Virus record (IMG/VR): IMGVR_UViG_3300020576_002081 | Location: 1 to 64,000 of that record | Length of the DNA stretch: 64,000 nt | Direction: 5' to 3' (one strand) | Source: a virus | Lineage: Duplodnaviria; Caudoviricetes | Shown: positions 1,730 to 39,562 of the stretch, piece by piece | Position numbering within the stretch: the stretch's first letter is position 1 | Layout of the letters: every line of letters begins with the position of its first letter | Translations under genes and position numbers: made by a program | Notes under the pieces: generated by a model | Databases searched by the model: none | Told to the model about the DNA's origin: nothing | The model's input: only the letters and a program-made list of their open reading frames with translations

Positions 1730-1771
1730 AATAAAAGACCAGTTAGGCTGATGGCAAACCTGGTTTTTATT
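1730..1771 (+). terminator. Long hairpin, terminator-like or tRNA leader
   Basis: AATAAAAGACCAG...CTGGTTTTTATT stem (one bulge), ending 4 nt before tRNA-Arg. Confidence 0.45.
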
Positions 1772-1775
1772 AAAC

Positions 1776-1847
1776 AGTCCTATAGTTCAACGGATAGAAC
1801 AGTAGGTTTCTAACCTTCTAATTCCAGTTCGATTCTGGGTGGGACTA
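1776..1847 (+). tRNA. tRNA-Arg(UCU)
   Basis: Acceptor AGTCCTA/TGGGACT, D-arm GTTC/GAAC, anticodon stem GTAGG/CCTTC with loop TT-TCT-AA, T-loop TTCGATT. No encoded CCA. Confidence 0.92.
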
Positions 1848-1871
1848 CAATTAACATTAAATAATTAAAAA

Positions 1872-2363
1872 ATGAAAAGTTTTCAAATAAAAACAAAGTT
1901 AGATAATATTAAATATATTAATTTTTATAGAAGAAATTTTAATGATCTGTCAACTCGTAGTAGAGCTAATTTAAATTCTTTTGAAATATATATTTATTAT
2001 AAAAGATTGAAATTATTATTATCATCTGATTTTAATGATAATAATTTAGAATATATATCATTAAATGATTTTAAAAATTTTTGTTTTCAATGTTTTATTG
2101 AAAAATATCCTAATGAAAAGTATTATAATGTTACATGTAAAGACTTTGAAAATGTTATAGATGCTTCTTTTGATGGATATTTAGATATTGACCATGTAAA
2201 AAATTTATTACCTTGGTCGAAAACTAATGTTCAAAGTACAGAAATTAAACCATTACCTTCTTATAATATAAATCAAATAAGAGATATTCTCATTAATGAT
2301 AAATATGATAAAGAAGATGTTGAAGATATAATTAAAACAATTCAAAACCATGAAACTTCTTGA
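1872..2363 (+). CDS. Hypothetical protein (163 aa)
   Basis: ORF; C-terminal helix motif shared with 3317..4117. Confidence 0.75.
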   Translation: MKSFQIKTKLDNIKYINFYRRNFNDLSTRSRANLNSFEIYIYYKRLKLLLSSDFNDNNLEYISLNDFKNFCFQCFIEKYPNEKYYNVTCKDFENVIDASFDGYLDIDHVKNLLPWSKTNVQSTEIKPLPSYNINQIRDILINDKYDKEDVEDIIKTIQNHETS

Positions 2364-2604
2364 AATAATTAAACCTTTTGTATTTAAACGTACAAATGAA
2401 GTAAAAATAATTAAAATATATTATATATATTTATTATACTATGAATACAAGATATATAAAAAATTTACAATATTATCTTTTATTAGTTTTTATTTTAAAA
2501 CTGATACATTTGATTCATTAAGTAAAAGTAGTATAAATCAATACAATTCTATATTAATGAATGGTGAATTAACAATTAAAGAAATTTATAAAATTAAAAA
2601 TTAA
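2350..2604 (+). CDS. Hypothetical protein (84 aa)
   Basis: ORF overlapping the upstream gene end, as in a coupled operon. Confidence 0.55.
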   Translation: MKLLEIIKPFVFKRTNEVKIIKIYYIYLLYYEYKIYKKFTILSFISFYFKTDTFDSLSKSSINQYNSILMNGELTIKEIYKIKN

Positions 2605-2694
2605 AAACAAAGGAATTGATATAGAATATCCTAATTTTAATAAAAAAGCCAGTATTACGGCTTCTGAAATATTACCTTTTGTTTTACTATTCAT
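2569..2694 (-). pseudogene. Truncated PD-(D/E)XK homing-endonuclease remnant (PDDEXK_5-like N-terminus)
   Basis: Manual translation: MNSKTKGNISEAVILAFLLKLGYSISIP, then unrelated sequence and a stop after 41 aa. The catalytic D...xQxK part is missing. Not in the ORF track. Confidence 0.7.
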
Positions 2695-2698
2695 GATA

Positions 2699-2730
2699 CA
2701 AAGATACAAAAAATATTTTATATTACCAAA
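2699..2730 (-). promoter_or_regulatory. Bacteroidota sigma70-type promoter (-33 TTTG / -7 TAnnTTTG)
   Basis: Minus strand TTTG-N20-TATCTTTG, 4 nt before the ATG at 2694. Confidence 0.75.
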
Positions 2731-2785
2731 AATTTATTAAATAAAATCCATCTCCCGCTACAAAACAAATTTAAAAATTAAAAAT

Positions 2786-3025
2786 ATGAAATTATTTATA
2801 ACAAATTTATGCGTAACTATTATTTTATACTTTATAGTATATTTTATAAAATCATTTATTATTTGGGATTTTACAAATCCTTTTCAGTGGATTATTGATA
2901 TTCCAACTTATGAAGATGGAGATCGTTTCTTAATATTATTTTGCATAATATTATGGCAAACTTTTCAAATACTTATTATTACACCATTAATTAATACTAA
3001 AAAAGAAATAAAATGGGAAAATTAA
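2786..3025 (+). CDS. Small membrane protein (2 predicted TM helices)
   Basis: Two hydrophobic stretches. Confidence 0.7.
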   Translation: MKLFITNLCVTIILYFIVYFIKSFIIWDFTNPFQWIIDIPTYEDGDRFLILFCIILWQTFQILIITPLINTKKEIKWEN

Positions 3026-3288
3026 AACCTATAGATTACCAGAATATTAGAGAAGCTTACGAAAAAAAGACTGAAGAATATTCTAAACATACTCCAGAAG
3101 AGTTAAAAGCTATTTGGGAAGAATCTCAAAAAGATAAGAAAAAACGTATTGGAGGAATATATAAAAAAGCCTTCTTAGATGTTTTATCTAAAAAACTTAA
3201 AGAACAACAATTAGCTAATTTACCTAAAATTGAAGAACCTGCACAGGAATCTTTAGAAAACATTAATCCAAATAATTCAACAACTTAA
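3013..3288 (+). CDS. Hypothetical protein (91 aa)
   Basis: Charged helical ORF overlapping the upstream stop. Confidence 0.75.
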   Translation: MGKLKPIDYQNIREAYEKKTEEYSKHTPEELKAIWEESQKDKKKRIGGIYKKAFLDVLSKKLKEQQLANLPKIEEPAQESLENINPNNSTT

Positions 3289-3316
3289 TTTTAAACCATT
3301 ACATTCTAAAAAGAGT

Positions 3317-4117
3317 GTGATGGTTTTATTTAAATACCGATTTATGAAAAAATTTATAATTGCAAAAAAAATAGGAGCAGGTAGCCATTATTTTATTTCA
3401 GATACTGAAGCTTTCAATCATGCTGATAAAGATATATCATATTATCTTTTAAAATTAAATTATTCACAGTATAATGTGGGGGTTTATAATATTAGTGTAG
3501 AAAGTCAAAATCTTATTGACTTACCTAGCTTTCAACAACATTTTAATTCTAGATTTATATATAATGAAGAATTAATTAAAGATACTAATAATTTATTAAA
3601 TTCTATTAATTTTAGTTCTACTTTTACAGATTCAGAAATTATTGATATTTTAGCTCATGATATTATTTCTTATCCTAATAAATTTAATGAACTAATTACA
3701 TTATTTAATAAAAAATCATATGATATAAATACATATGAAGGTCGAAATGAAAATTCTGATGTATTTAGTCATTATTTAAAAATTCATTGGTCAAGAGGTA
3801 GTGGTCTTTCTAAGAATAAAATTAATGAATATATTAGCTTTTTTTATCAGTATTATTCTAATTTTTATAGCATAATTAAATATCAACAAAATATATTAGT
3901 TATAAATACAATTTTAAATAATCCTATATCAGAAAAATATAATGATATTAATGGTGTTGATAAAAATAAAGAATCAGTTAAAAGTGAAAACATTACATTT
4001 AAGAATATTAAACAAATATTATACGATAAATTTGATAGGGATGATATAAAAGAAATAGTTGATTGCTTAGAAAAAGAACTAAGTAAGTACGAAAATAAAG
4101 TTGGCGAAACAAAATAG
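3317..4117 (+). CDS. Hypothetical protein (start probably the downstream ATG, MKKFII)
   Basis: Long ORF; C-terminal motif shared with 1872..2363. Confidence 0.75.
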   Translation: MMVLFKYRFMKKFIIAKKIGAGSHYFISDTEAFNHADKDISYYLLKLNYSQYNVGVYNISVESQNLIDLPSFQQHFNSRFIYNEELIKDTNNLLNSINFSSTFTDSEIIDILAHDIISYPNKFNELITLFNKKSYDINTYEGRNENSDVFSHYLKIHWSRGSGLSKNKINEYISFFYQYYSNFYSIIKYQQNILVINTILNNPISEKYNDINGVDKNKESVKSENITFKNIKQILYDKFDRDDIKEIVDCLEKELSKYENKVGETK

Positions 4118-5249
4118 AAATCTTTGGGTATATGATATTGAAACATTAAAATCATGTTTTACATATACTGGTTTAAATGTAGATACCCAAGAAGTAGTAC
4201 AATTTGTATTACATGAAAAAGTTAATAATCTAGACTCATTAATGAATCATTTGAATACTTGTAAAGGTCAAATAGGTTTTAATAATGTAAATTTTGATTA
4301 TCCTATAATTCATAGGTTAATGAATAATTATAAAAATGGTTATTTTAAGAACGTTCCTGCAGAAGATATTGTAAGATTAATTTATGATGATGCTCAACGT
4401 TTAATTGAAGAACAGAATTTAAAAACAGGATTTAATAGTATTATATCAATATCCTTAAATGAAGTATTAATACCACAATTAGATTTATACAAAATATGGC
4501 ACTATAACAATAAAGCAAGGTCTACAAGCTTAAAAGCTTTAGAAATAAGCATGAATTTTCATAATGTTATGGAAATGTCTATTGGTCATGACCAAGAAAA
4601 CATACCTCATGAAGCTGTAGAATCAATATTAGAGTACAATTTGAATGATGTTTTAGCAACTTTTGAATTTTACAAAAGGTCTATTGAAAAAATAAACTTA
4701 AGGAAATCTTTGAGTGAAAAATTCAATATACCTTGTTTAAATTGGTCTGATAGTAAAATAGGTGAACAATTGATTTTAAAGCTTTATTGTGATAAAACTG
4801 GTAGTAAGCCTTATGAAGTTAAAAAACTACGCTCAAATCGCTCAAAAATAGCTTTAAATGATGTTATATTACCTAACATTCATTTTGAATCATCAAATTT
4901 CCAAAAAGTATTAAATTATTTTAAATCTAAAGAAATAACTGAAACTAAAGGTAGTATAGAATACTCTGTTTTACATAAAGGTTTTAAGTATGATTATGGT
5001 ACAGGTGGAATACATGGATGTATTAAATCTGGAATTTATGAATCAGATGATGATTATGTGATTATTGATGCGGATGTGGCCAGCCTATATCCCAGTTTAG
5101 CTATAACTAATAACTTTTACATAGACCATTTAGGTCAAGAATTTGTAAATGTATATCAAGAAATAATTAATTTACGTTTAAAAGCTAAATCTGAAGGCAA
5201 TTCCGTATTATCTGATGGATTTAAATTAGCTGCTAATAGCGTTTATGGT
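4101..5249 (+). CDS. polB: Family B DNA polymerase, exon 1 (3'-5' exonuclease plus motifs A and B)
   Basis: YDIET (ExoI), FNNVNFD (ExoII), YNLND (ExoIII), DADVASLYPS (motif A), KLAANSVYG (motif B) at the exon end. Confidence 0.93.
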
Positions 5250-5622
5250 TGAAAAATAATTAAAAATAAATTTGCATAATAAAAGCTTATATTTTAGTTA
5301 TAAGCCACTTCATCAAGTAATTGATGCTGAAAAATTGGATAAATTCGGTGAAACTCCAGAAATGGACAATACCGAGCCAACTATTAATTTAAATAATTAA
5401 TAAAGGTGTAACGACTAGATATTGAAACTAAATAATAAAAGGCATTGGTCAAATCCAATCTCATGTAGTATAACTCGAAGTACAGTTATTATTTAGAATA
5501 TAATATATCCACGAACATCCAACATCCTATAGTCTTTAGGATGAAGATATAGTCTGAACTGCAACTATAATAATGTGAAATTGCAGAATTATAAGATAAA
5601 GAGCTTATAAGATAACAAATTG
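5250..5622 (+). mobile_element. Group I intron without ORF (373 nt) in polB
   Basis: Exon ends in U, intron ends in G. Core AATTCGGTGAAACTCC...ATACCGAG, AACGACTAG...GATATAGTCTGAAC. Splicing restores SVYG|KSND in frame. Confidence 0.92.
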
Positions 5623-6393
5623 AAATCTAACGATATTAATAGCTTTTTATATGATCCACAATTTACAATGGCTATTACAGTTAATGGTCAATTATTATTA
5701 AGCATGTTGGCTGATTGGATTACTGATAGTATTGAAGACTTAACTGTTTTACAAATTAATACTGATGGTATAACTGTTAGAATTAATAAAAAATACGTTG
5801 ATTCTTATTACAAAATCTGTAAAGAATGGCAAAATGCTACTAAATTAACTTTAGAATATGTTGAATATTCTAAAATGATAATAGGTGATGTTAATAATTA
5901 TATTGCTGTAACAACTAATAGTAAGATTAAATCTAAAGGTAGATTTGAAGTTAATAAAGTAGTTGGTTCAGAACCTGCTTATCATAAAGATAATTCGTTT
6001 AGAATCGTTCCTTTAGCTTTACAAGAATATTTTGTTAATTGTGTACCTGTTGAAAAAACAATAGCTGAACATACTAATATATATGATTTTTGTGGTAGAC
6101 AAAAGTTTAGAGGTAAAGATTATGGTGCTATAAGATTTATTAATGAAGATAAGATAATTGAAGAAAAACAACAAAAAAACGTTAGATATTACATATCTAA
6201 TAAAGGGTTTAGTTTCATAAAACATTATGAAAAAGGAACTCAAGAAATAATTAATAAAGGATTTCAAGTAATAATATTTAATAAGTTTATTGGAAAAGAG
6301 ATTGATGAGTATAATATAAATTATGATTTTTATATTAAAGAATGTTATAAAGAGATAAATATGATAATAAATAAACAATTAAGTATGTTTTAA
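5623..6393 (+). CDS. polB: Family B DNA polymerase, exon 2
   Basis: GQLLL and INTDG (motif C), VNNY, KGRF. In frame with exon 1 after splicing. Confidence 0.93.
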   Translation, partial: KSNDINSFLYDPQFTMAITVNGQLLLSMLADWITDSIEDLTVLQINTDGITVRINKKYVDSYYKICKEWQNATKLTLEYVEYSKMIIGDVNNYIAVTTNSKIKSKGRFEVNKVVGSEPAYHKDNSFRIVPLALQEYFVNCVPVEKTIAEHTNIYDFCGRQKFRGKDYGAIRFINEDKIIEEKQQKNVRYYISNKGFSFIKHYEKGTQEIINKGFQVIIFNKFIGKEIDEYNINYDFYIKECYKEINMIINKQLSMF

Positions 6394-7541
6394 TGGCAAC
6401 GTCGTATATAGAACCAGATCCTTTCGCAAAGTATATGAGAGTAAAAAAACTCGTGGGTTTTGAATATGAACCAATAGTTGATGCTAAAGAGGATAAAGAA
6501 AAAATAGAAAATAAAAAATTAATTAAAGATTTTATAAGTGATTTTAAAAAATATGAACTTACTTTTGGTGAATTAAACTATGAATCTAAACCACTTAGTA
6601 AAAGAAAAAGATTTCCAAGAAATACTACAAGAATTCCTGAATCAGGATTAAGGTTTTCTCAAATTTATTATGGTTATGATGGTAATAAACTTTCTACAGA
6701 TAAAAATGAAATTCAAGAAACAATTTTAGGTATACAATTTCTTGCTAAAAATAATTATTATGTTTTAAAATTAGAACCTAAAAGTTTTGATGATAATAGT
6801 TATAGATATAATTTTGTATCTAAAATTAAACGTCCTGTTATAGGTAATGCAATATCTATAACAGGTAATAGTAGTATTACAAGAGTTATTGAAAAATATT
6901 ATTTTGTTAAAATTAAAAATTACAAATTATCATCTAAATTATTTAGCTATTCTTCAATCAAGAAGTCTATGTTCATAAGTAATTCTTTTGATGAAACTTA
7001 TGAACAAGTTAAAAGAGATAATCAATCTCTTACTGAACAACAAGTTTTAGATTTAGCTCATAAAGCTAAACGAAAAAAATATGTAATTAACAAAATACAT
7101 TTTAATCATCTTTGTAAAAAGGATAATATTATTAGAGATGTTGTTGAAATTTTAGATAAAGAATCTGGTAGAAATGTTAAGTTTGCTTTTGAAGATGTTG
7201 AGTTTATTAAACCTGATTTTGATAGTTTAAGTAAATGTGTAAATCCTCCTAAGAAAAAAGAAAAAATTGATATTGGTACTTTAGTAACTATTAAAAATGT
7301 AAAACAATCATTAGCTAAAACAGATTATGTATATACTGTTAAAGAATTATTAAAGACTGATGATGAAGGATTAATCAGATTGGCTGTGATTTATGATGAA
7401 GATTTGAAAAAATTAATAACTGTTAAATTTAAAAATTTAAAAAAATATGACCCTCCTAAAAAGAAAGCCGTTAAATCAAAAAAAGATGTTGAAAAACTCT
7501 CAGAAGATTTCATCACAGATGGTTCAGGACTTCCGTGGTAA
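6393..7541 (+). CDS. Hypothetical protein (382 aa, basic)
   Basis: Long ORF coupled to the polB stop (TAATG). Confidence 0.8.
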   Translation: MATSYIEPDPFAKYMRVKKLVGFEYEPIVDAKEDKEKIENKKLIKDFISDFKKYELTFGELNYESKPLSKRKRFPRNTTRIPESGLRFSQIYYGYDGNKLSTDKNEIQETILGIQFLAKNNYYVLKLEPKSFDDNSYRYNFVSKIKRPVIGNAISITGNSSITRVIEKYYFVKIKNYKLSSKLFSYSSIKKSMFISNSFDETYEQVKRDNQSLTEQQVLDLAHKAKRKKYVINKIHFNHLCKKDNIIRDVVEILDKESGRNVKFAFEDVEFIKPDFDSLSKCVNPPKKKEKIDIGTLVTIKNVKQSLAKTDYVYTVKELLKTDDEGLIRLAVIYDEDLKKLITVKFKNLKKYDPPKKKAVKSKKDVEKLSEDFITDGSGLPW

Positions 7542-29241: not shown

Positions 29242-30234
29242 ATGAAAACATTAAATTTAATTGACTTAGAGAAGTCTGATATTAAATATAAAATAAGTAA
29301 ATTTCCTGATGGTCAACAAAATATTGTTATTGATAATTCTCCTGATATAGATGGAGATAAATTACCAGGTTATTATTATTTAGCTGGTCGAAGTAGAATA
29401 TATACTAAAGAAAGTATAACAATTAAATCACGTCTAAACAACTGGTTAGACTTAGAGCTAATCAGTTGTTCTATAGCTTGTTTAAAAGAATTAGGAGTAA
29501 AAGAAATACACTTGTACGTACCTTATATAGTAGGTGCTAGAAGTGATAGAAAGTTTACTGAAGGTTCTAACAACTATTTAAGAGATGTTATATGTCCTAT
29601 ATTAACTAGTATGCAATTTGAAACAATAACTTGCTTAGATGCTCATTCTTATTGTTTAGAAATGGGATTAAAAAATCTTAAAGTTATTAGTAATGAAAAC
29701 TTAGTTAAGTGGGCCACATTAGATTTATATGATGCAATTGAAGAAAAAGGTCCTAACTCAAACTACCCTTGTATATTAGTATCACCAGATGCTGGAGCTT
29801 CACATAAAATCTATAAATTAGCTAAACAAATTGGTTATAAAGGAGATATTATTACTTGTTCTAAAGAAAGAGATACTGATGGTAAATTAACTAAAACGGT
29901 TGTACCTATTACTGATTCAATAATTAAATCTAAAAAAGATTATATTATTATTGATGATATTTGTGATGGTGGTGCTACATTTATTAATATTGCAAAAGAA
30001 ATTAAATCTACTTTTAGTATTTATAGTAAAACAGAAAAACCTAAAATCTACCTCATAGTAACTCATGGTATATTCTCTAAAGGTTTTGATGAATTATCTA
30101 AATACTTTGATGGTATTTATTGTACTAATAGTTATAAGGATGTTCCTAAATATTATACATCAATAATAAGTGGGGAACAATATCCAGTAAATAAAATAAC
30201 TAATGAATTAATTAATCAATTAAACGTATTTTAA
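29242..30234 (+). CDS. prs: Ribose-phosphate pyrophosphokinase-like (Prs / NARP1 Adps-like)
   Basis: FPDGQ, YVPY..GARSDR, DAHS, SPDAGA, IIDDICDGGATF, VTHGIF. Confidence 0.9.
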   Translation: MKTLNLIDLEKSDIKYKISKFPDGQQNIVIDNSPDIDGDKLPGYYYLAGRSRIYTKESITIKSRLNNWLDLELISCSIACLKELGVKEIHLYVPYIVGARSDRKFTEGSNNYLRDVICPILTSMQFETITCLDAHSYCLEMGLKNLKVISNENLVKWATLDLYDAIEEKGPNSNYPCILVSPDAGASHKIYKLAKQIGYKGDIITCSKERDTDGKLTKTVVPITDSIIKSKKDYIIIDDICDGGATFINIAKEIKSTFSIYSKTEKPKIYLIVTHGIFSKGFDELSKYFDGIYCTNSYKDVPKYYTSIISGEQYPVNKITNELINQLNVF

Positions 30235-31433: not shown

Positions 31434-32312
31434 ATGTCATTTAAAATAAATAGTCTATACTTAACTGATGGTTACAAAGTAGGACATCAAAAAATGTTAG
31501 CTCCAGGTACTACTAAATTATATGGTACTTGGATTCCACGTTCAACTAAACATGCACCAAAAGGTATTACTAAAATAGTATCATTTGGACAGCAATTAGT
31601 TTGGAAATGGTTACATGATGAATTTGAGGAGAATTTCTTCCTTACTGAATTAAGAGGAGTAGGTGGATATGCTGCTTTAAAACACAAAGAAAGCTTAAAA
31701 CAAAAAGCACTTCAATTTATCAAAGATATGTCTTTATACTTAGGTATGGAGTATGATGGTAAGCATTTTGAAGAATTGTGGGATTTAGGTTACTTACCTA
31801 TTAAAGTAAAAGCTTTACCAGAGGGTATTGAAACTAACCCGAATATTCCTCATATGACCTTTGTAAATACAGTTGATGGATTTGCATGGTTAACTTTATA
31901 TCTTGAAACAATAGTATCATCATTAGCTTGGAAACCGAGTACAGCAGCTACTATTGCTAAGTTATATCGTAGACAATGTGAAGAATGGGTTATGAAAACC
32001 GATCCTAAACAAGCTTATTTAATTGATTGGATGTGTCATGATTTCTCTGCTAGAGGATTAGACCCAATGAGTCAATATTTAATTGGTTTAGGTCATACTA
32101 CTTCATTTAAAGGTAGTGATACTTTACCTGTAATACCTGCAAGTAGATATTTCTATGGAGTTAAAGAAGATGAAATGCCTATATTTTCAGTAAATGCAAG
32201 TGAGCATAGTTGCTCATGCACTAAAATATTTGCAGAAGCAGAAAAGTATTCACAAGTAGAGGAAATGTTTGACGAAGTGACTAATTCTTGGAAACCAGTA
32301 AAATATTTTTAA
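31434..32312 (+). CDS. nadV: Nicotinamide phosphoribosyltransferase-like (NAMPT/Namat), N-terminal half
   Basis: LTDGYKVGH, LPIKVKALPEG, WLTLYLET, HDFSARG, GSDT, ASEHS, then a stop. Confidence 0.92.
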   Translation: MSFKINSLYLTDGYKVGHQKMLAPGTTKLYGTWIPRSTKHAPKGITKIVSFGQQLVWKWLHDEFEENFFLTELRGVGGYAALKHKESLKQKALQFIKDMSLYLGMEYDGKHFEELWDLGYLPIKVKALPEGIETNPNIPHMTFVNTVDGFAWLTLYLETIVSSLAWKPSTAATIAKLYRRQCEEWVMKTDPKQAYLIDWMCHDFSARGLDPMSQYLIGLGHTTSFKGSDTLPVIPASRYFYGVKEDEMPIFSVNASEHSCSCTKIFAEAEKYSQVEEMFDEVTNSWKPVKYF

Positions 32313-32638
32313 TTATGAGTACAACATTCGGAATAAAAGTAAATCCTGAATTGACAGGTTATCCTGAAAAAACTTGGAGTAAAAATTTCAGATATTGGAC
32401 AGAAGAAGAAAACCAATATGATAATGGCGTTTATAAAATAGCATTTAGATTTTTTGGAGGCAAAAAATATGGGGCTATTATGTATTTTACTTGTCCTATA
32501 GCCCATTTATTACCTCTTAACACCCCTGTAATTGCTTTAGATAATACTGCTGGGGATATTGAAACAATAGGAGATATAATTGAACACATTAAAAATCAAA
32601 AAGAGTATCCTGAACAGTTATTAGCAAATAGTGAATAA
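32288..32638 (+). CDS. Hypothetical protein inserted between the NAMPT halves
   Basis: ORF (likely ATG at 32316); no nuclease motif seen. Confidence 0.7.
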   Translation: METSKIFLIMSTTFGIKVNPELTGYPEKTWSKNFRYWTEEENQYDNGVYKIAFRFFGGKKYGAIMYFTCPIAHLLPLNTPVIALDNTAGDIETIGDIIEHIKNQKEYPEQLLANSE

Positions 32639-32680
32639 TTTTGTAAATACCAAATTATTTAACAATTATTTTAATAAAAC

Positions 32681-33049
32681 ATGGAAATAAAAATTGAAGA
32701 TTATCTTTCGGAAGAAGAAATCAAAGAAATAGTTAAAGAAGAAATTAAAAAACACATTAGAAATTGTGTTGGAGAAGTTTCTGTATCTCAAGATAAGGCA
32801 AGAGTTATGTTATCAGTAATGGCGAAACAAATAGCTAGAGATGGTATTCAAGGACTTATACCTAATTTTAAAGAATCTTTAAATGAACATATTAAAGAAG
32901 AAATTAAAAACTTGAAATTACATGATTTCTTTACTCATAATATGGGATGGAGAAGTGATGGTAATAAATTAATTAATTCTATTTTGTCTGATAATAAAGC
33001 GTTAATTGATGCTAAAATTAAAGAAATATTTAAAACATTAGAAAAATGA
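32681..33049 (+). CDS. Hypothetical helical protein inserted between the NAMPT halves
   Basis: ORF; its stop overlaps the NAMPT-C start (ATGA). Confidence 0.8.
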   Translation: MEIKIEDYLSEEEIKEIVKEEIKKHIRNCVGEVSVSQDKARVMLSVMAKQIARDGIQGLIPNFKESLNEHIKEEIKNLKLHDFFTHNMGWRSDGNKLINSILSDNKALIDAKIKEIFKTLEK

Positions 33050-33985
33050 AAACAAGAATTAGACAATTAACAGAACAAGAAAAGCGTTCAAGAGGAGAAC
33101 AACAAATGATTGCAGATTGGCTTAAAATCTTTCCTAAAGGTATTTTAAGCATAGTTTCAGATACATTTGATTTATGGAAACTAATTACTGAATATCTACC
33201 TGCTAATAAAAAAGCTATAATGGATAGAGGTCACATTGAAGTAATTAAATTACCATTATTTAATGGAAAACCTACATATTGTGGTAAAGATTGGGCTATT
33301 GGTGATACATTAATTAAAATAGGAACAGCTCATCAATTAGGATATTGGAGCGAAAATGATGACCCTGACGATAATGTTTATCAAAACCAAAGAACTAAAG
33401 AAACTATAAACTTAACTTTATTAAATGATAAAGGTTCTGAGTATTTTAAATATATTCCTGGTAAATTAGTAATTAGACCTGATAGTGGTGACCCTGTTGA
33501 TATTATTTGTGGATTAAATATTCCTGAATTTAAAGATGAATCTGAAATTAGAGATTGTTTTTATAATATAGATGAAAATAAAGAATTTATTTTTAAATAT
33601 AAAGAACAATTTTATATAGTTAATTCTAATTATACTATTGAAGAACATATCAGAGAGTATGGACAAGAACATTGGAATAAATGGAAAACTTTGTTTGATG
33701 CTGTTGAAAGATATGGTTATGTAGAAATTTATAAACCTAAATTTTCTATATCTGAACAAAAAGGTGTAATTGAACTACTTTGGGACATCTTTGGTGGTAC
33801 TGTAAATGAACAAGGTTATAAAGTATTAGATCCTCATATTGGAGCAATATATGGTGATAGTATTACACCTGAACGTCAAAAACAAATCTATGAAAGATTA
33901 GCAGCTAAAGGTTTTGCAGCTACTAATATTGTATTAGGTGTAGGTAGTTTTACTTATCAATATAATACTAGAGATACATTAGGGT
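33046..33985 (+). CDS. nadV: NAMPT/Namat C-terminal half, exon 1
   Basis: SIVSDTFDLW, VIRPDSGDP, KGVIELLW, IYGDSIT, GVGSFTYQY.TRDTLG. Confidence 0.92.
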
Positions 33986-34220: not shown

Positions 34221-34552
34221 TCGCAGCTAAAGGTGCTTGGTTTGAAGTTGAAACTTGTAGTAGAGAAGATTGTAATGGTAGTTCTTGTAAAGCTGAAAGA
34301 GGTTCTATTTGTAAACATCATTCTAAAAAATCATACAATATCTACAAAGACCCAGTAACAGATGATGGTACTAAGAAGTCTTTGAAAGGATTGTTAGCTG
34401 TATTTAAAGATGATAAACATGATTACTTTGTTCAAACTGAATGTGCTGGAGAATTAGAAAATTCAGGAGAATTACAACTAATCTATGAAGACGGTAAGTT
34501 TTATAATCAAACAACATTAGAAGAAATAAGAAACAAATTAAATAAAATTTAA
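34221..34552 (+). CDS. nadV: NAMPT/Namat C-terminal half, exon 2 (absent from ORF track)
   Basis: Manual translation: AAKGAWFEV...IYKDPVTDDGTKKSLKGLL...YEDGKFYNQTTLEEIRNKL, stop at 34550-34552. Confidence 0.92.
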
Positions 34553-35078: not shown

Positions 35079-35273
35079 ATGAAAACAAAAAACAACAAAT
35101 CAGCAAACAAATCAAAAAGTCTTAACAGTCACGTTAAAGTAGCTAAAGGTGTATATCGTACACTAAGTGGAAATTATGCAGTAAGACCAACAGTAAATGG
35201 AGTACGTTTACATGTAACTTTTACTAACATGAAACAAGCTAAAGCATACTATAAAACAGTTGTTAATTCTTAA
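35079..35273 (+). CDS. Small basic protein, AP2/integrase-arm-like DNA-binding domain
   Basis: KGVYR..SGNYAVRPTVNG.RLH.TF....AKAY: three-strand-plus-helix pattern. Confidence 0.55.
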   Translation: MKTKNNKSANKSKSLNSHVKVAKGVYRTLSGNYAVRPTVNGVRLHVTFTNMKQAKAYYKTVVNS

Positions 35274-35278
35274 TTAAT

Positions 35279-35317
35279 AAAACACCCCTACTACATTTTG
35301 TAACAGGGGTGTTTTTT
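35279..35317. terminator. Bidirectional terminator at the junction of the convergent modules
   Basis: AAAACACCCCT/AGGGGTGTTTT 11-bp stem with A/T tails on both sides. Confidence 0.85.
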
Positions 35318-35341
35318 ATTAGTACCGTAAATATTTAATTG

Positions 35342-38300
35342 TTATTTTTGATAAGGGTCTTTATTCCAAAGTCTAGCAAAATCTGCTATTGGTTTAATTA
35401 CAGGAGTTACATTAATTAAACTGGCTAATTCTTTATTTTCACCTTTAAATCTACCTCTTTTAAATTTATCACCAGTAATTACTGATGGAGTATATTCTAT
35501 AACTTTAATTAAATCTTGAGCTGTCTTAAGCATTGGAACACTAAGTTTTGCAGGATCTGTTAACGCTTTAGGGTTATAAAAATACATTAAATCACCACTA
35601 ATTTGATTTAATTGACTCATTAAAAACTTATATGTTGGATCTTTACGTTTTTTATCATCATCAAATCCTATACCTGCTAATACCGTACCTAATAGTAAGG
35701 TTAATTCAATCATATTCTTACGCATATTATAAACATCAGTTTCATTAAAAGAATACTTTTCAATATTCTCAACATCATTCTGAAATTTAGCTATCATATA
35801 ATTAAATCCTTTAATATAAGTACGATATCTACCTTCAATCTCAACATCTAATCTTTCATCAAATCTTTTACCACCAAATCTAGATTCAATTGCTGCAGGT
35901 ATCCATTTTTTAAATTGAAAAGCGGCTCTAAATAAACTATATTGAGTTAAAGCAGCAGCATCTTTTTGAGAATATCTACCATGAATTAATTGATTAATTC
36001 TATGTATTTTATTAGTAGTTTTAAATATAAAATTATCATCTAACTCATAACCCATTAATTCAGAATTCCATTCACCACTTTCATTGAAAGCTTCCCACAT
36101 GCTTATGGTATTACCTTCTTTAGTAGTAACTTTATTATGTAATAACAAAGCAATCATAGTACTAGTTTGCATTTGTTTTTCACCCATTCTTTGAGGTAAA
36201 TACATTAAAGATTTAATCTTATCTTTATATTCATTAGAACCTACATTAATCTTTTCAAGATTTTCATAATCATCTAATTCCATTAAAGGATTAAATTTAG
36301 CTGCTAATTTATTAAGTTTAGAATCATTCACTAAATTCTCTTTAGAAAATATTTTAATAGCTTCTAAATATTCTTTAGTAGTAAAATGTCTACCTCCAAC
36401 AGCTTCAATTAAGTTACCTATATTACCTATAATAAAGTTTACAGACGCATTAAAAGGATTCAAACCAATTCTTAATAATGATGTATACTTAAGCATAAAA
36501 TCAATATGAGGAGCATATTTCTCTTCACGTTTCATCTCACCTAATACTTGCATTTTAATAAATGAATCAATCATTTCATTAAGTTTAGTATCTTCACCAT
36601 ATACTGATTTATTCTTATTAGTATTCTTAATAAATTCTTGTTGTTTAACTAACTCTTGAAACAATCTTGCTTTAGGTAAAACATCAGTCATTTCTTCATA
36701 TGAATTAGCAAAATAAGCATATTTAAGTAAAACACTACCTAAATCTTTAGATTTAATATCTTTACTTAATTTACCTAAGTATTTAACAGGTACACTATCC
36801 TTTTCAAGATTTTCATCAAATATTCTATCATTATCAGAATAATCATTAATTTCTAACATATGATTTGCACCATCTTTTAATTTAGATAACATAGTCTTAT
36901 CAGACTTCATTATATCCATCAAAGTTCTTTCAACTATATTAGGTATAAAATTAGAATTTTGTTTATATTGTTCAGGTAATTTATCATTAACCTCGGCAAT
37001 TATTCCTTTAAAGAAATTATAAAATTCTTTTAATTCTTTAGTATTTTGAATAGTTTCATAATCCTTATTATTATACTTATTATCTCTAGGTATAAATTCT
37101 TTAGTAGCAGAATTATACGTAGCTAATTTACTTCTTATTAAGAAACCATTAGGTTCTTTAAAAGAATCAGATATTTTTTTATAGAATTCGGTTGTATAAG
37201 GTTTAGTTAAAACTAAAGTACCTTTATGTTCTTGTAAGAAAATTTTATAAATATCTGTACCAGATAAACCTCTAGATTTTTGATAATCAGTTAACTTATT
37301 AACAGCATTATTAATTCTTTCAAAAGACTTCTTATTTTCAACTTCAATCTTATTCTGAGCCTTTTTAATTAATAACCCTATAGTTTTACCTAAATAGTTT
37401 TTAACATCAGCTAATGTACCAAAATTAGCTTCTGCAGCTGAAATATCAGTATCTAATTGATTAAATATACTTTCATCAAATTCTTTACCAGTTAATCCTT
37501 GCATTTCATCTAAAACAAACACTTTAGCGAATTGTAAAGTATCATTTAATAATATACCTACTCTATCTTTAACACCAATCATATTTTCAAACATGTGTAA
37601 AACTTTAACAGTTCTTTCAATCTTATCTACATTAGGTTTATTACCAGATTCTACAACTTGTTTAAGTTTATTAACATACTCTTCAATCTCATCTAAAGTT
37701 TCATTAGCAAGATTTAAAAGTACTTGTTTATTACCATTTTCACTAATTTCTTTTAAACTAGCTTCAATTTTAAGTATTTTTTCATTGGTTTTTAAGAATT
37801 CATCACTAGAAGGTTCTAATTTAGACAAATCTGATTTTAATTTACCTAATAATCCTTTATAATATACATATTGAGGTCTAATATCTTTAGCTATGATATT
37901 CTTATTATTAACACTAAACATCTTAATAAAAAGGTCTGTACTCTCAACTTCTTTAGTTGAAAGTATCATTTTAGCTAATTCTTTAGATAAATTATCAAGT
38001 TCAGACTGTATATTATAGTTTGGTTTAAATAACCTTACAAAAGCATCTAACATTCTTTTTATAGTTTCCCATAAAGCAAAACCAGGTTCATTTAACAATT
38101 CTTCAGGTGTATTAGCTTCAGCTATAACTTTAGCTACTAATTTACCTAAATATTCGTGTTTTAAGAGAGTTTCATCATTATTATATGTATCTATATAGGT
38201 TTGACCTAAAAAGCCTCTATAATCGACTTTATTCATTAAATTAAAGGCTCTTTTAACTAATGTATGATCTTCGCCCAAAGCTAATGTTAAATAATGAGCT

Positions 38301-39562
38301 AATTCTTCTGGAAAAGTATCAGTTTCAGCTAACTTTTGATTAATTTTAATAACTTTTTTAACAGAATCATAAAAACCATTAACTTCATTATTATTATCAT
38401 CAAGAACCTTTTCTATAAATTCAACCTTAATATTATTAACTTTTGCAAAATCTTGTAATAATGTAGACATTCTAGAAGTAATATCATTTTTTTTATCTAC
38501 CGTGGATTTTTTTGAAAATAAGATTTTATTAAGATATTCAGGTTTAATTTCTACTTCATTCCAAGTATTACCATATTCATCAGTAATTATATTAGGTAAA
38601 TAACCATTCTTTTTAAGAATATTAGTTACAGTATTTTCATAGAAATTAAAAATAGGTTTTAAAGCACCAAATCCTTCAGTTTCAACTCTTTCAAGTTCTT
38701 GTTTAAGTTGATTTATTTCTTGTTTAGAAGATTTAGACATAAATTCATAAGCAACTTCTTTACCTTCTTTTTCATTATAAACTTTTGTAGTAAATGCTAC
38801 ATTAGGATATTCTTTAGTTGATTCTTTTTTATGAACTTGATTATCTACTATTTTATAAGTTTTATTAAAAAATTCATCCGAAGCTATTTCTTTAAGTTTA
38901 TTTTCAAGTTCCTTAATCCTATCTTCTTTCTGTTTCTTAAACTCTTCTAAAGTACTATGACCTTCAACTTTACTGGCTGTATTACCTGTAGGAAATAATA
39001 CTTTCTCATATCCTTTCTTAGCACTATCTTGTATAATAGATTTAATAAAGAATGTTACCCAATTGTTGTTTTTGTTTAGAAGTTGTAGGAATTGATTAGA
39101 ATTAATATTCTTATTATAAATATCATTTTCTACTTTTTCAATTTCTTTAATTTTTCTATTTTCATTTTCAATAGAACCTTCTTCTCTTTCTATTCTTTCT
39201 TTTAAATAAGATAAGGCATATTCTTTATCAAATTTACCTTCTTTAGCTTCCTTACTATAAGGATTTTCTGCAATAGGTATAGTACCACCTCTAATTCCTT
39301 CAGATTCAACACTTGCTACATATCTACCTGCATTATTTGGTAAAATAATTTTATAATTATTATCTTTTATAGCTTGTATTGCTTTTTCAAAATTTACTAT
39401 ATTATCTTCATAATTTTTTATAGAAGAAAGATATACCTGTTTATTTGTAGGTACTTTATCAAACTTAGACAAAGTACTATTTTTTAAAGTAGGTATCACT
39501 TTACTTATAAATTCTTCTTTAGAAGAATATGTTGTTCCTTTATATATGTATTTACAAGCCAT
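35342..39562 (-). CDS. Large virion/ejection protein (1406 aa) with degenerate zincin-like motif
   Basis: Size and position next to the vRNAP; GFYD...EELAH zincin-like segment; only Cys is residue 3. Confidence 0.75.
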   Translation of the reverse strand: MACKYIYKGTTYSSKEEFISKVIPTLKNSTLSKFDKVPTNKQVYLSSIKNYEDNIVNFEKAIQAIKDNNYKIILPNNAGRYVASVESEGIRGGTIPIAENPYSKEAKEGKFDKEYALSYLKERIEREEGSIENENRKIKEIEKVENDIYNKNINSNQFLQLLNKNNNWVTFFIKSIIQDSAKKGYEKVLFPTGNTASKVEGHSTLEEFKKQKEDRIKELENKLKEIASDEFFNKTYKIVDNQVHKKESTKEYPNVAFTTKVYNEKEGKEVAYEFMSKSSKQEINQLKQELERVETEGFGALKPIFNFYENTVTNILKKNGYLPNIITDEYGNTWNEVEIKPEYLNKILFSKKSTVDKKNDITSRMSTLLQDFAKVNNIKVEFIEKVLDDNNNEVNGFYDSVKKVIKINQKLAETDTFPEELAHYLTLALGEDHTLVKRAFNLMNKVDYRGFLGQTYIDTYNNDETLLKHEYLGKLVAKVIAEANTPEELLNEPGFALWETIKRMLDAFVRLFKPNYNIQSELDNLSKELAKMILSTKEVESTDLFIKMFSVNNKNIIAKDIRPQYVYYKGLLGKLKSDLSKLEPSSDEFLKTNEKILKIEASLKEISENGNKQVLLNLANETLDEIEEYVNKLKQVVESGNKPNVDKIERTVKVLHMFENMIGVKDRVGILLNDTLQFAKVFVLDEMQGLTGKEFDESIFNQLDTDISAAEANFGTLADVKNYLGKTIGLLIKKAQNKIEVENKKSFERINNAVNKLTDYQKSRGLSGTDIYKIFLQEHKGTLVLTKPYTTEFYKKISDSFKEPNGFLIRSKLATYNSATKEFIPRDNKYNNKDYETIQNTKELKEFYNFFKGIIAEVNDKLPEQYKQNSNFIPNIVERTLMDIMKSDKTMLSKLKDGANHMLEINDYSDNDRIFDENLEKDSVPVKYLGKLSKDIKSKDLGSVLLKYAYFANSYEEMTDVLPKARLFQELVKQQEFIKNTNKNKSVYGEDTKLNEMIDSFIKMQVLGEMKREEKYAPHIDFMLKYTSLLRIGLNPFNASVNFIIGNIGNLIEAVGGRHFTTKEYLEAIKIFSKENLVNDSKLNKLAAKFNPLMELDDYENLEKINVGSNEYKDKIKSLMYLPQRMGEKQMQTSTMIALLLHNKVTTKEGNTISMWEAFNESGEWNSELMGYELDDNFIFKTTNKIHRINQLIHGRYSQKDAAALTQYSLFRAAFQFKKWIPAAIESRFGGKRFDERLDVEIEGRYRTYIKGFNYMIAKFQNDVENIEKYSFNETDVYNMRKNMIELTLLLGTVLAGIGFDDDKKRKDPTYKFLMSQLNQISGDLMYFYNPKALTDPAKLSVPMLKTAQDLIKVIEYTPSVITGDKFKRGRFKGENKELASLINVTPVIKPIADFARLWNKDPYQK

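Follow-up and report, generated by a model that had tools for sequence, protein, structure and literature searches.

This report concerns a viral gene for Namat, an enzyme of the NAMPT/NAPRTase family, which is found as two separate genes in a virus of the Caudoviricetes. The DNA analysed, here called the window, is a stretch of 64,000 nucleotides (nt) covering positions 1-64,000 of the 84.9-kb IMG/VR virus contig IMGVR_UViG_3300020576_002081, which is about 93% complete. The open reading frame (ORF) listing gives four consecutive ORFs on the + strand at the locus, namely an N-terminal half of the gene (N-half), ORF1, ORF2 and a C-terminal half (C-half). The material between the halves is a mobile cassette that also supplied the last codons of the N-half (the tail) and the first codons of the C-half (the head). 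The features of the locus are as follows (aa, amino acids):

31434-32312, + strand: N-half gene, 292 aa, with its stop 31 aa past SEHS
31434-32231, + strand: Namat-homologous part of the N-half, 266 codons, ending in ...SEHSCSCTKIF
32232-32312, + strand: tail, 26 cassette-derived codons plus a TAA stop, forming the end of the N-half gene
32315-32638, + strand: ORF1, 107 aa, with its ATG two bases past the N-half stop
32628-32680, no strand given: conserved intergenic block upstream of ORF2, 93% identical to positions 3392-3444 of the related viral contig L004
32681-33049, + strand: ORF2, 122 aa, whose stop overlaps the C-half start
33046-33093, + strand: head, 16 cassette-derived codons that provide the C-half ATG
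33094-33985, + strand: C-half first exon, beginning at GEQQ and ending after TRDTLG with the first base of a Phe codon
33986-34220, + strand: group I intron, 235 nt, without an ORF
34221-34552, + strand: C-half last exon, comprising two bases of the Phe codon, 109 codons and the stop

The closest cultured relative, phage Lbo-JY46, has one uninterrupted gene of 544 aa at 82% identity. When the JY46 protein is compared with the window by tblastn, homology ends at ...TKIF (32231) and restarts at GEQQ (33094), so that 862 nt stand in place of two codons. The N-half is 82% identical to residues 1-275 of the JY46 protein and the last exon, in frame 2, is 59% identical to residues 441-544, while the tail and head have no counterpart in the uninterrupted genes. 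The C-half ATG at 33046 lies 733 bp past the N-half stop and overlaps the stop of ORF2 (ATGA). A preliminary description of this DNA had recognised the split, with an N-half ending at 32312 about 30 aa past SEHS, two ORFs in the gap and a C-half restarting 733 bp downstream with its own coupled ATG, and the ORF listing agrees with each of these. It overlooked the mobile cassette, the origin of the tail and head in that cassette, and the group I intron in the C-half. Its placing of the end of the gene at 33985 was mistaken, as this is the 5′ splice site of the intron and the last exon runs on to 34552.

The source is a metagenome-derived virus record, and the two ORFs could have been stitched into the gene by mis-assembly. 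Both gap junctions are however bridged by contigs from three independent studies with 0-4 differences, two of which also span the group I intron, and the same architecture recurs in many other assemblies. The assembly, which the preliminary description had wanted checked, is sound, and the probability of a chimera is negligible. The independent contigs that support the junctions are:

X1: 31593-32740
X4: 32151-33075
X7: 32130-33090

The intron at 33986-34220 matches Rfam RF00028 with 51.6 bits (gathering score 50; E 1.7e-12) in a scan of short stretches; an initial 10-kb Rfam scan missed even this true intron, and short stretches were then rescanned. The intron has raised G+C and contains the R and S elements typical of group I; the base before the 5′ splice site is U, and the intron ends in G. 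The ORF from 33046 departs from the family alignment past TRDTLG and frame 2 resumes at 34221. Splicing yields TRDTLG-F-AAKG, which matches the relatives exactly, restores the frame and gives a C subunit of 423 aa. Intron-less alleles occur as DNA in the same sequencing runs, and seven C-half protein clusters terminate in read-through of this TRDTLG^F group I intron. The same intron is present in the contig L086 (2050-3420), where it carries a 300-aa LAGLIDADG gene.

Both parts of the gene belong to the NAMPT/NAPRTase family. The C-half matches Pfam PF04095 with 55.3 bits (cut-off 20.8), and the N-half, with 16.8 bits, stays under the PF18127 cut-off of 25. The best solved relative of both halves is the SpbetaL1 Namat (9w5x), against which the N-half aligns with residues 9-251 at E 1e-44 and the C-half at E 1e-41; the matches to animal NAMPT are much weaker (E 1e-21 and 6e-8, respectively). 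Alignment finds every motif of the catalytic core in the window halves (DxYK, HDFxxRG, GxDT, the EHS His, VSDxxD, RPDSG, YGD, GxGS and TRD), in line with the earlier statement that the motifs of both halves are intact. The Namat-type aromatic helix GSFTYQY is found in the C-half, and at the selectivity-clamp helix GSFTYQYNTRDT of the window aligns with an identical string of 9w5x. The clamp aromatics are F392 and Y396 of SpbetaL1 Namat (PMC12774641). The active-site residues of Namat are F189, R192, D215 and A242 on the one hand and R306, D308, G360-A362, G390-F392, Y396 and R399 on the other (PMC12774641). In the solved enzyme each active site draws residues from both sides of the break position, and both structural domains combine N- and C-terminal segments (PMC12774641). 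The two halves must therefore co-fold for activity.

One continuous gene is found in 13 close relatives, made up of 11 distinct viral contigs (L005-L016) and two cultured phages. When viral contigs were searched with the N-half, these 11 uninterrupted loci were obtained and one, L004, with the identical break; additional split loci came from pattern searches and contig look-ups. As in known genes in pieces, then, relatives are uninterrupted and the break replaces only a few codons. Aeromonas phage LAh_9, which appeared split in the match table, was rejected as a split gene as it has in fact one gene of 549 aa. The identical break with the 26-aa tail and the 16-aa head is present in at least eight other viral contigs. 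The split loci that share the tail and head, with what lies between their halves, are:

L004: ORF2 at 91% identity, with a 216-aa reverse-strand ORF, bearing a zinc-ribbon and HNH motif, in place of ORF1
L019: HNH gene and ORF2, inside a distant Namat 41-59% identical to the window's group, whose nearest relatives are uninterrupted
L048: a single unrelated 115-aa ORF
L086: a 161-aa ORF
L169: a copy of ORF1 (95% identical, at the equivalent position) and another ORF
L170: a 31-codon HNH remnant and ORF2
L171: an HNH gene only
L043 and L045: decayed copies

In a collection of 5.8 billion proteins, 27 clusters of about 280-300 aa were recovered with the SEHS-plus-tail region and about 38 C-half clusters with the head region (clusters defined at 90% identity, from public metagenomes). 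Wherever a contig reaches both sides of the break, both halves are present, the N-half first and the C-half second.

The cargo between tail and head varies by contig and is often a reverse-strand HNH homing endonuclease. The reverse-strand ORFs of L004 and L019 match PHROG 1035 / HNH at 2e-17; an HNH gene is present at the break in L004, L019, L043 and L171, and a remnant in L170. No homing endonuclease gene lies at the break in the window, where ORF1 has neither an endonuclease signature nor any relative in Pfam, PHROG or Atlas. Homology between the DNA of the window and L004 is missing exactly over 32265-32627, where L004 holds its HNH gene, so ORF1 occupies the endonuclease slot. The conserved block at 32628-32680, which in relatives separates the divergently oriented HNH gene and ORF2, may be a control region.

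ORF2 is a frequent passenger of the cassette and is 91-93% identical in L004, L019, L043 and L170, even though divergence between the host genes reaches about 50%. The ORF2 of L019, for instance, is 92% identical to that of the window, and the Namat halves of L019 are only 41-59% identical to the window's group. Homologues of ORF2 at 55-89% identity occur in the neighbourhoods of L020-L030, which have no Namat or HNH gene (in L020, for example, it is preceded by genes resembling those for a small lipoprotein and a glucosaminidase), and ORF2 is therefore a roaming passenger gene. It is all-helical, with a poor AlphaFold2 (AF2) model (predicted local distance difference test score, pLDDT, 58), and is matched in Atlas by unnamed viral clusters only.

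The cassette as a whole is much more conserved than the host genes that carry it, and the presence of the same insert in divergent host alleles means that it is mobile. In a tree of the N-half core the split genes are scattered over more than one clade, and the closest neighbour of the window N-half is the uninterrupted L005, although this tree is weakly resolved and compatible with one origin. The flank of the cassette reads SEHS-[CV]-SC in all split genes versus SEHS-V-ST in intact ones, and P0007 and P0011 have a decayed backbone yet a pristine stretch of about 25 codons beside the cassette. The conserved cassette, the scattered split genes and the pristine flanks have the signature of homing with co-conversion, and by this pattern the insert is a mobile homing-endonuclease cassette to which the tail and head belong. 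A 13-nt direct repeat (end of homology and end of tail) and a 16-nt inverted repeat between tail and head are not conserved in L004 or L019 and were therefore treated as chance. A scan for sigma-70 promoters and terminators gave counts at chance level.

With a true group I intron only 900 nt downstream in the same gene, the 862-nt gap might itself be a group I or II intron that is spliced from the mRNA to give a single chain. As the first 10-kb Rfam scan had missed the real intron, a missed intron in the gap was possible in principle. The short-stretch scan of 32180-33140 found no intron core, as the preliminary description had maintained, though this method detects the neighbouring intron. 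Furthermore, only the tail and head are constant across split loci, and both evolve as codons. The interior of the gap is swapped for unrelated ORFs on either strand, which leaves no room for a conserved ribozyme core, and a 10-nt complementarity between tail and head RNA in the window is lost in L004. To the extent that sequence can decide, the gap does not hold an intron, and we give this explanation next to no weight.

Since only split genes have the tail and head, the divergence of these two segments measures time spent in the split state. Tail length is constant in all 27 clusters, with nine invariant positions and a net charge of -2 to -4 in every cluster; the head has seven invariant positions and a net charge of +2 to +5 in 36 of 36 clusters. 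In pairwise comparisons of the tail, the ratio of nonsynonymous to synonymous differences per site (pN/pS) is 0.27-0.71 at pS 0.25-0.78, a synonymous divergence comparable with that of the host gene (dS 0.67 for the window against L004). The catalytic motifs tested are all retained in 25 of the 27 N-half clusters, and all five tested are retained in 34 of the 38 C-half clusters; of the other four, one is decayed, and in three the only missing motifs are those past the point where the sequence is truncated at its 3′ end. The ratio of nonsynonymous to synonymous substitution rates (dN/dS), which the preliminary description had proposed as a check, is 0.157 for the N-half core of the split pair (window against L004). 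This is within the range of intact pairs (0.10-0.22), and the decayed L043 gives 0.33-0.44. The core of the C-half first exon gives 0.19. These patterns show purifying selection acting on both halves as well as on the tail and head, and the acidic tail and basic head are consistent with a docking pair. A MAFFT alignment had hinted that the tail might be a diverged duplicate of the VSDTFD segment of the C-half, but this was rejected after local alignment against shuffled sequences (p 0.2-0.8).

The insertion may instead have inactivated the gene, the window halves being a young pseudogene that has not yet decayed. Homing-endonuclease cassettes are selfish and able to spread regardless of cost, and NARP1, the phage module to which Namat belongs, is accessory and not essential. 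The cassette is demonstrably mobile and moves between alleles, so that some of the conservation behind the low exon dN/dS may be older than its presence in a given genome. One lineage has decayed (L043, P0065) and one deletion fusion was seen (P0082), the latter being the sole find in a search for an uninterrupted Namat with in-frame tail plus head. A young pseudogene would however not explain why tails and heads that have diverged this far (pS 0.25-0.78) retain their length, invariant residues and charge across 27 and 36 clusters. Nor would it account for the completeness of the motifs, for a dN/dS equal to that of intact genes, or for a cargo that has turned over many times with both halves remaining open. 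We consider a young pseudogene unlikely.

Another explanation takes the tail and head, perhaps along with ORF2, as the parts of a split intein, which would join the two halves by protein trans-splicing. Split inteins of an atypical kind, whose N-terminal piece has about 25 aa, are known. The layout here (enzyme half, endonuclease gene, enzyme half) is also that of fractured genes (PMC2677866). But the tail begins with Ala-Glu rather than Cys or Ser, and the head, only 16 aa long, ends in ...Arg-Ser-Arg/Leu followed by Gly, without a His-Asn or a +1 Cys, Ser or Thr. ORF2 is in another frame, is absent from the split loci L048 and L171 and also occurs outside Namat. No Hint or intein match was found in the Pfam search, and true inteins of the same gene family (L086, L168) look quite different. 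Trans-splicing is highly improbable, and since the tail and head are free of any intein hallmark, any reunion of the halves must be non-covalent.

An intein and a probable intein were observed at two other positions in this gene family. In L086 (662-2050; also P0055 and P0039) an intein of about 305 aa lies at RPD^SGDP of the C-half, starting with Cys and ending in ...Gly-Asn before Ser. In L168 (1197-3638; Staphylococcus phage O1-102) NadV is one ORF of 813 aa with an in-frame insert of about 350 aa that ends in ...Ser-Gly-Asn just before TEHS, and this is probably an intein at the catalytic His motif.

The halves might also no longer cooperate, one or both having taken on a separate function, for example as a regulatory or substrate-binding fragment. 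The conservation of catalytic residues in both halves is only sensible in a complete active site, and the halves co-occur in order wherever a contig reaches both sides, which makes this very unlikely.

The same loop has been broken more than once. In L140 (1355-3777) a Namat of a different clade is split there, with a reverse-strand homing endonuclease (PHROG 314, NUMOD3), and its tail and head correspond to the two parts of a loop insertion kept in frame in L013 (around 5001-6719). This split, made by a different endonuclease, is an independent event; together with the in-frame insertion in L013, it shows that the loop tolerates both insertion and cleavage.

We conclude that this locus is probably a "gene in pieces" made by a homing endonuclease, whose products still function together as an enzyme of two subunits. 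The preliminary description had likewise favoured a natural enzyme of two subunits, with new terminal peptides that may dock together, above a recent insertion that inactivates the gene, and this preference is backed by the persistence of the break, tail and head, by the motifs, by dN/dS and by the lack of an intron core in the gap. In the course of events that we propose, a mobile, free-standing homing-endonuclease cassette would have landed in a surface loop just past the catalytic His motif and fractured the gene. It would have given the upstream half its acidic tail of 26 codons and its stop, given the downstream half its basic head of 16 codons and its start, and brought exchangeable cargo. 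In relatives this cargo is a reverse-strand HNH endonuclease with or without ORF2, and in the window ORF1 has taken the place of the endonuclease gene. The phage would then make two polypeptides, an N subunit of 292 aa and, after self-splicing of the group I intron, the C subunit of 423 aa. These most likely co-fold into the normal intertwined two-domain protomer, which would then pair into the usual head-to-tail dimer to give N2C2, and the opposite charges of tail and head probably assist the two halves in finding and holding each other. The comparisons establish the anatomy of the locus, the mobility and long persistence of the cassette, and the purifying selection on both halves and on tail and head; the physical assembly of the halves, the docking role of tail and head, enzymatic activity and the anti-defence role are what we infer.

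Several points weigh against a working two-subunit enzyme. Binding between the two polypeptides and activity of the pair are predictions, supported indirectly by the signs of selection. As noted above, part of the exon conservation may be older than the cassette in its present alleles. The decayed lineage (L043 at 1766-5810, with L045, P0007, P0011 and P0065) is a nested copy with lost catalytic motifs and extra ORFs that carries the same cassette, and together with the P0082 deletion fusion it means that the split state is not always maintained. An AF2 model of the N-half alone has a pLDDT under 50 for residues 247-276, the region of the break, and with such low confidence at the break and tail it is uninformative on docking. 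The C-half of the window contains two large in-frame insertions, at 33230-33458 (about 76 codons) and at about 33514-33759 (about 64 codons), which may affect the enzyme. They are missing from L004, other relatives and co-occurring alleles of the same metagenomes, although an insertion similar to the one at the first site is found in P0029 and L043, and their end residues are not those of inteins. Lastly, the Prs-like neighbour described below is only assumed to be Adps.

It is possible, though we hold it tentatively, that the tail and head are a portable docking pair carried by the endonuclease cassette. In L043, a 106-aa ORF on the minus strand (4155-4475) has the head at its start and the tail at its end, a hint that the pair might be usable on other proteins. 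Next to self-splicing introns and inteins, a portable docking pair would give selfish elements a third means of residing in a conserved enzyme gene without destroying it, with the element cutting at a permissive loop and charged peptides reuniting the halves non-covalently. Should the tail and head prove to be a self-contained docking module, they would also provide a small natural tool for split proteins.

Enzymes split by homing endonucleases have been described in other phages. Reassembly into an active ribonucleotide reductase was shown experimentally for nrdA-a / mobE / nrdA-b of Aeromonas phage Aeh1 (Friedrich et al. 2007, as reviewed in PMC2988022), and an active reassembled enzyme, with pieces that co-purify, was also shown for the split DNA polymerase 43A/43B of Aeromonas phage 25 (PMC2988022). 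For the T4 topoisomerase gp39/gp60 with mobA, assembly was inferred from its unusual subunit structure (PMC2988022). As with Aeh1 NrdA, the enzyme studied here is split into two cistrons and relatives hold an uninterrupted gene. Unlike Aeh1, the enzyme is a Namat/NAMPT whose activity is predicted, and the endonuclease is on the opposite strand in relatives and lost in the window. The cassette also recurs in numerous alleles that have diverged from one another, and it keeps end peptides of opposite charge while its cargo changes. The T4 gp39/gp60 and phage 25 43A/43B pairs resemble it in having separately translated pieces at an endonuclease insertion, but they are other enzymes with other endonucleases and no shared tail/head pair is described there. 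Fractured genes (Dassa et al. 2009, PMC2677866) have the same order of N-part, endonuclease gene and C-part, come from phage metagenomes, and received control elements with the insert. Their split-intein halves ligate covalently, in contrast to the 26- and 16-aa ends here. By analogy with Aeh1 NrdA, T4 gp39/gp60 and the phage 25 polymerase, the mechanism is that of endonuclease-made genes in pieces. What is new is that the enzyme is a Namat, that the split form fills dozens of clusters, that cargo turns over while tail and head stay constant, and that these two are complementary in charge.

The reassembly of endonuclease-split enzymes is listed as an open question in reviews, and this locus gives a natural series in which the same break, tail and head are combined with many cargo states, uninterrupted sisters, a decayed control and an independent second split. 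The literature search found no report of a split Namat or NAMPT, and split or intron-bearing forms of Namat are not mentioned in PMC12774641 or in the preprint bioRxiv 10.1101/2024.02.11.579819, where 'split' and 'intron' occur 0 times. Given how widespread the two-gene form is, homology screens for single-chain Namat/NAMPT will miss modules or mis-call them as pseudogenes.

Namat, a protein of the type II phosphoribosyltransferase fold, is the ligase of NARP1, a phage module that reconstitutes nicotinamide adenine dinucleotide (NAD+) and counters bacterial immunity that depletes it, such as Thoeris, DSR and SIR2-type systems. The predicted reaction is the formation of NAD+ from ADPR-PP and nicotinamide. 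NARP1 consists of Adps plus Namat (bioRxiv 10.1101/2024.02.11.579819). The neighbouring gene that bears on this is:

29242-30234, + strand: Prs/Adps-like gene, 330 aa, four genes upstream of the N-half

This gene matches Pfam PF00156 with 26.4 bits, its best solved relatives are ribose-phosphate pyrophosphokinases, and in L004 it directly precedes the N-half. It is likely, by this similarity and position, the partner enzyme of a NARP1-type module. No Nmnat family member (PF01467) was found in the 84.9-kb record, and with a Prs-like gene nearby the arrangement therefore resembles NARP1 and not NARP2. The window resembles SpbetaL1 Namat (PDB 9W5X; PMC12774641) in the catalytic residues and the GSFTYQY helix, and it has a Prs/Adps-like gene nearby and no Nmnat; the solved enzyme is a single chain of 491 aa. 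The locus thus looks like a NARP1-type module, and the split module may have an anti-defence role.

Two further observations were made in this phage group. In L004 (4682-7763) a GIY-YIG endonuclease gene (6217-6939) lies between two PolB-type exonuclease/polymerase-like pieces, which may be a further gene in pieces. In the window, a strong hairpin followed by a T-run at 35266-35322 has only weak, chance-level Rfam matches; it lies between the convergent genes 35079-35273 (+ strand) and 35342-39562 (- strand), and is probably a bidirectional terminator.

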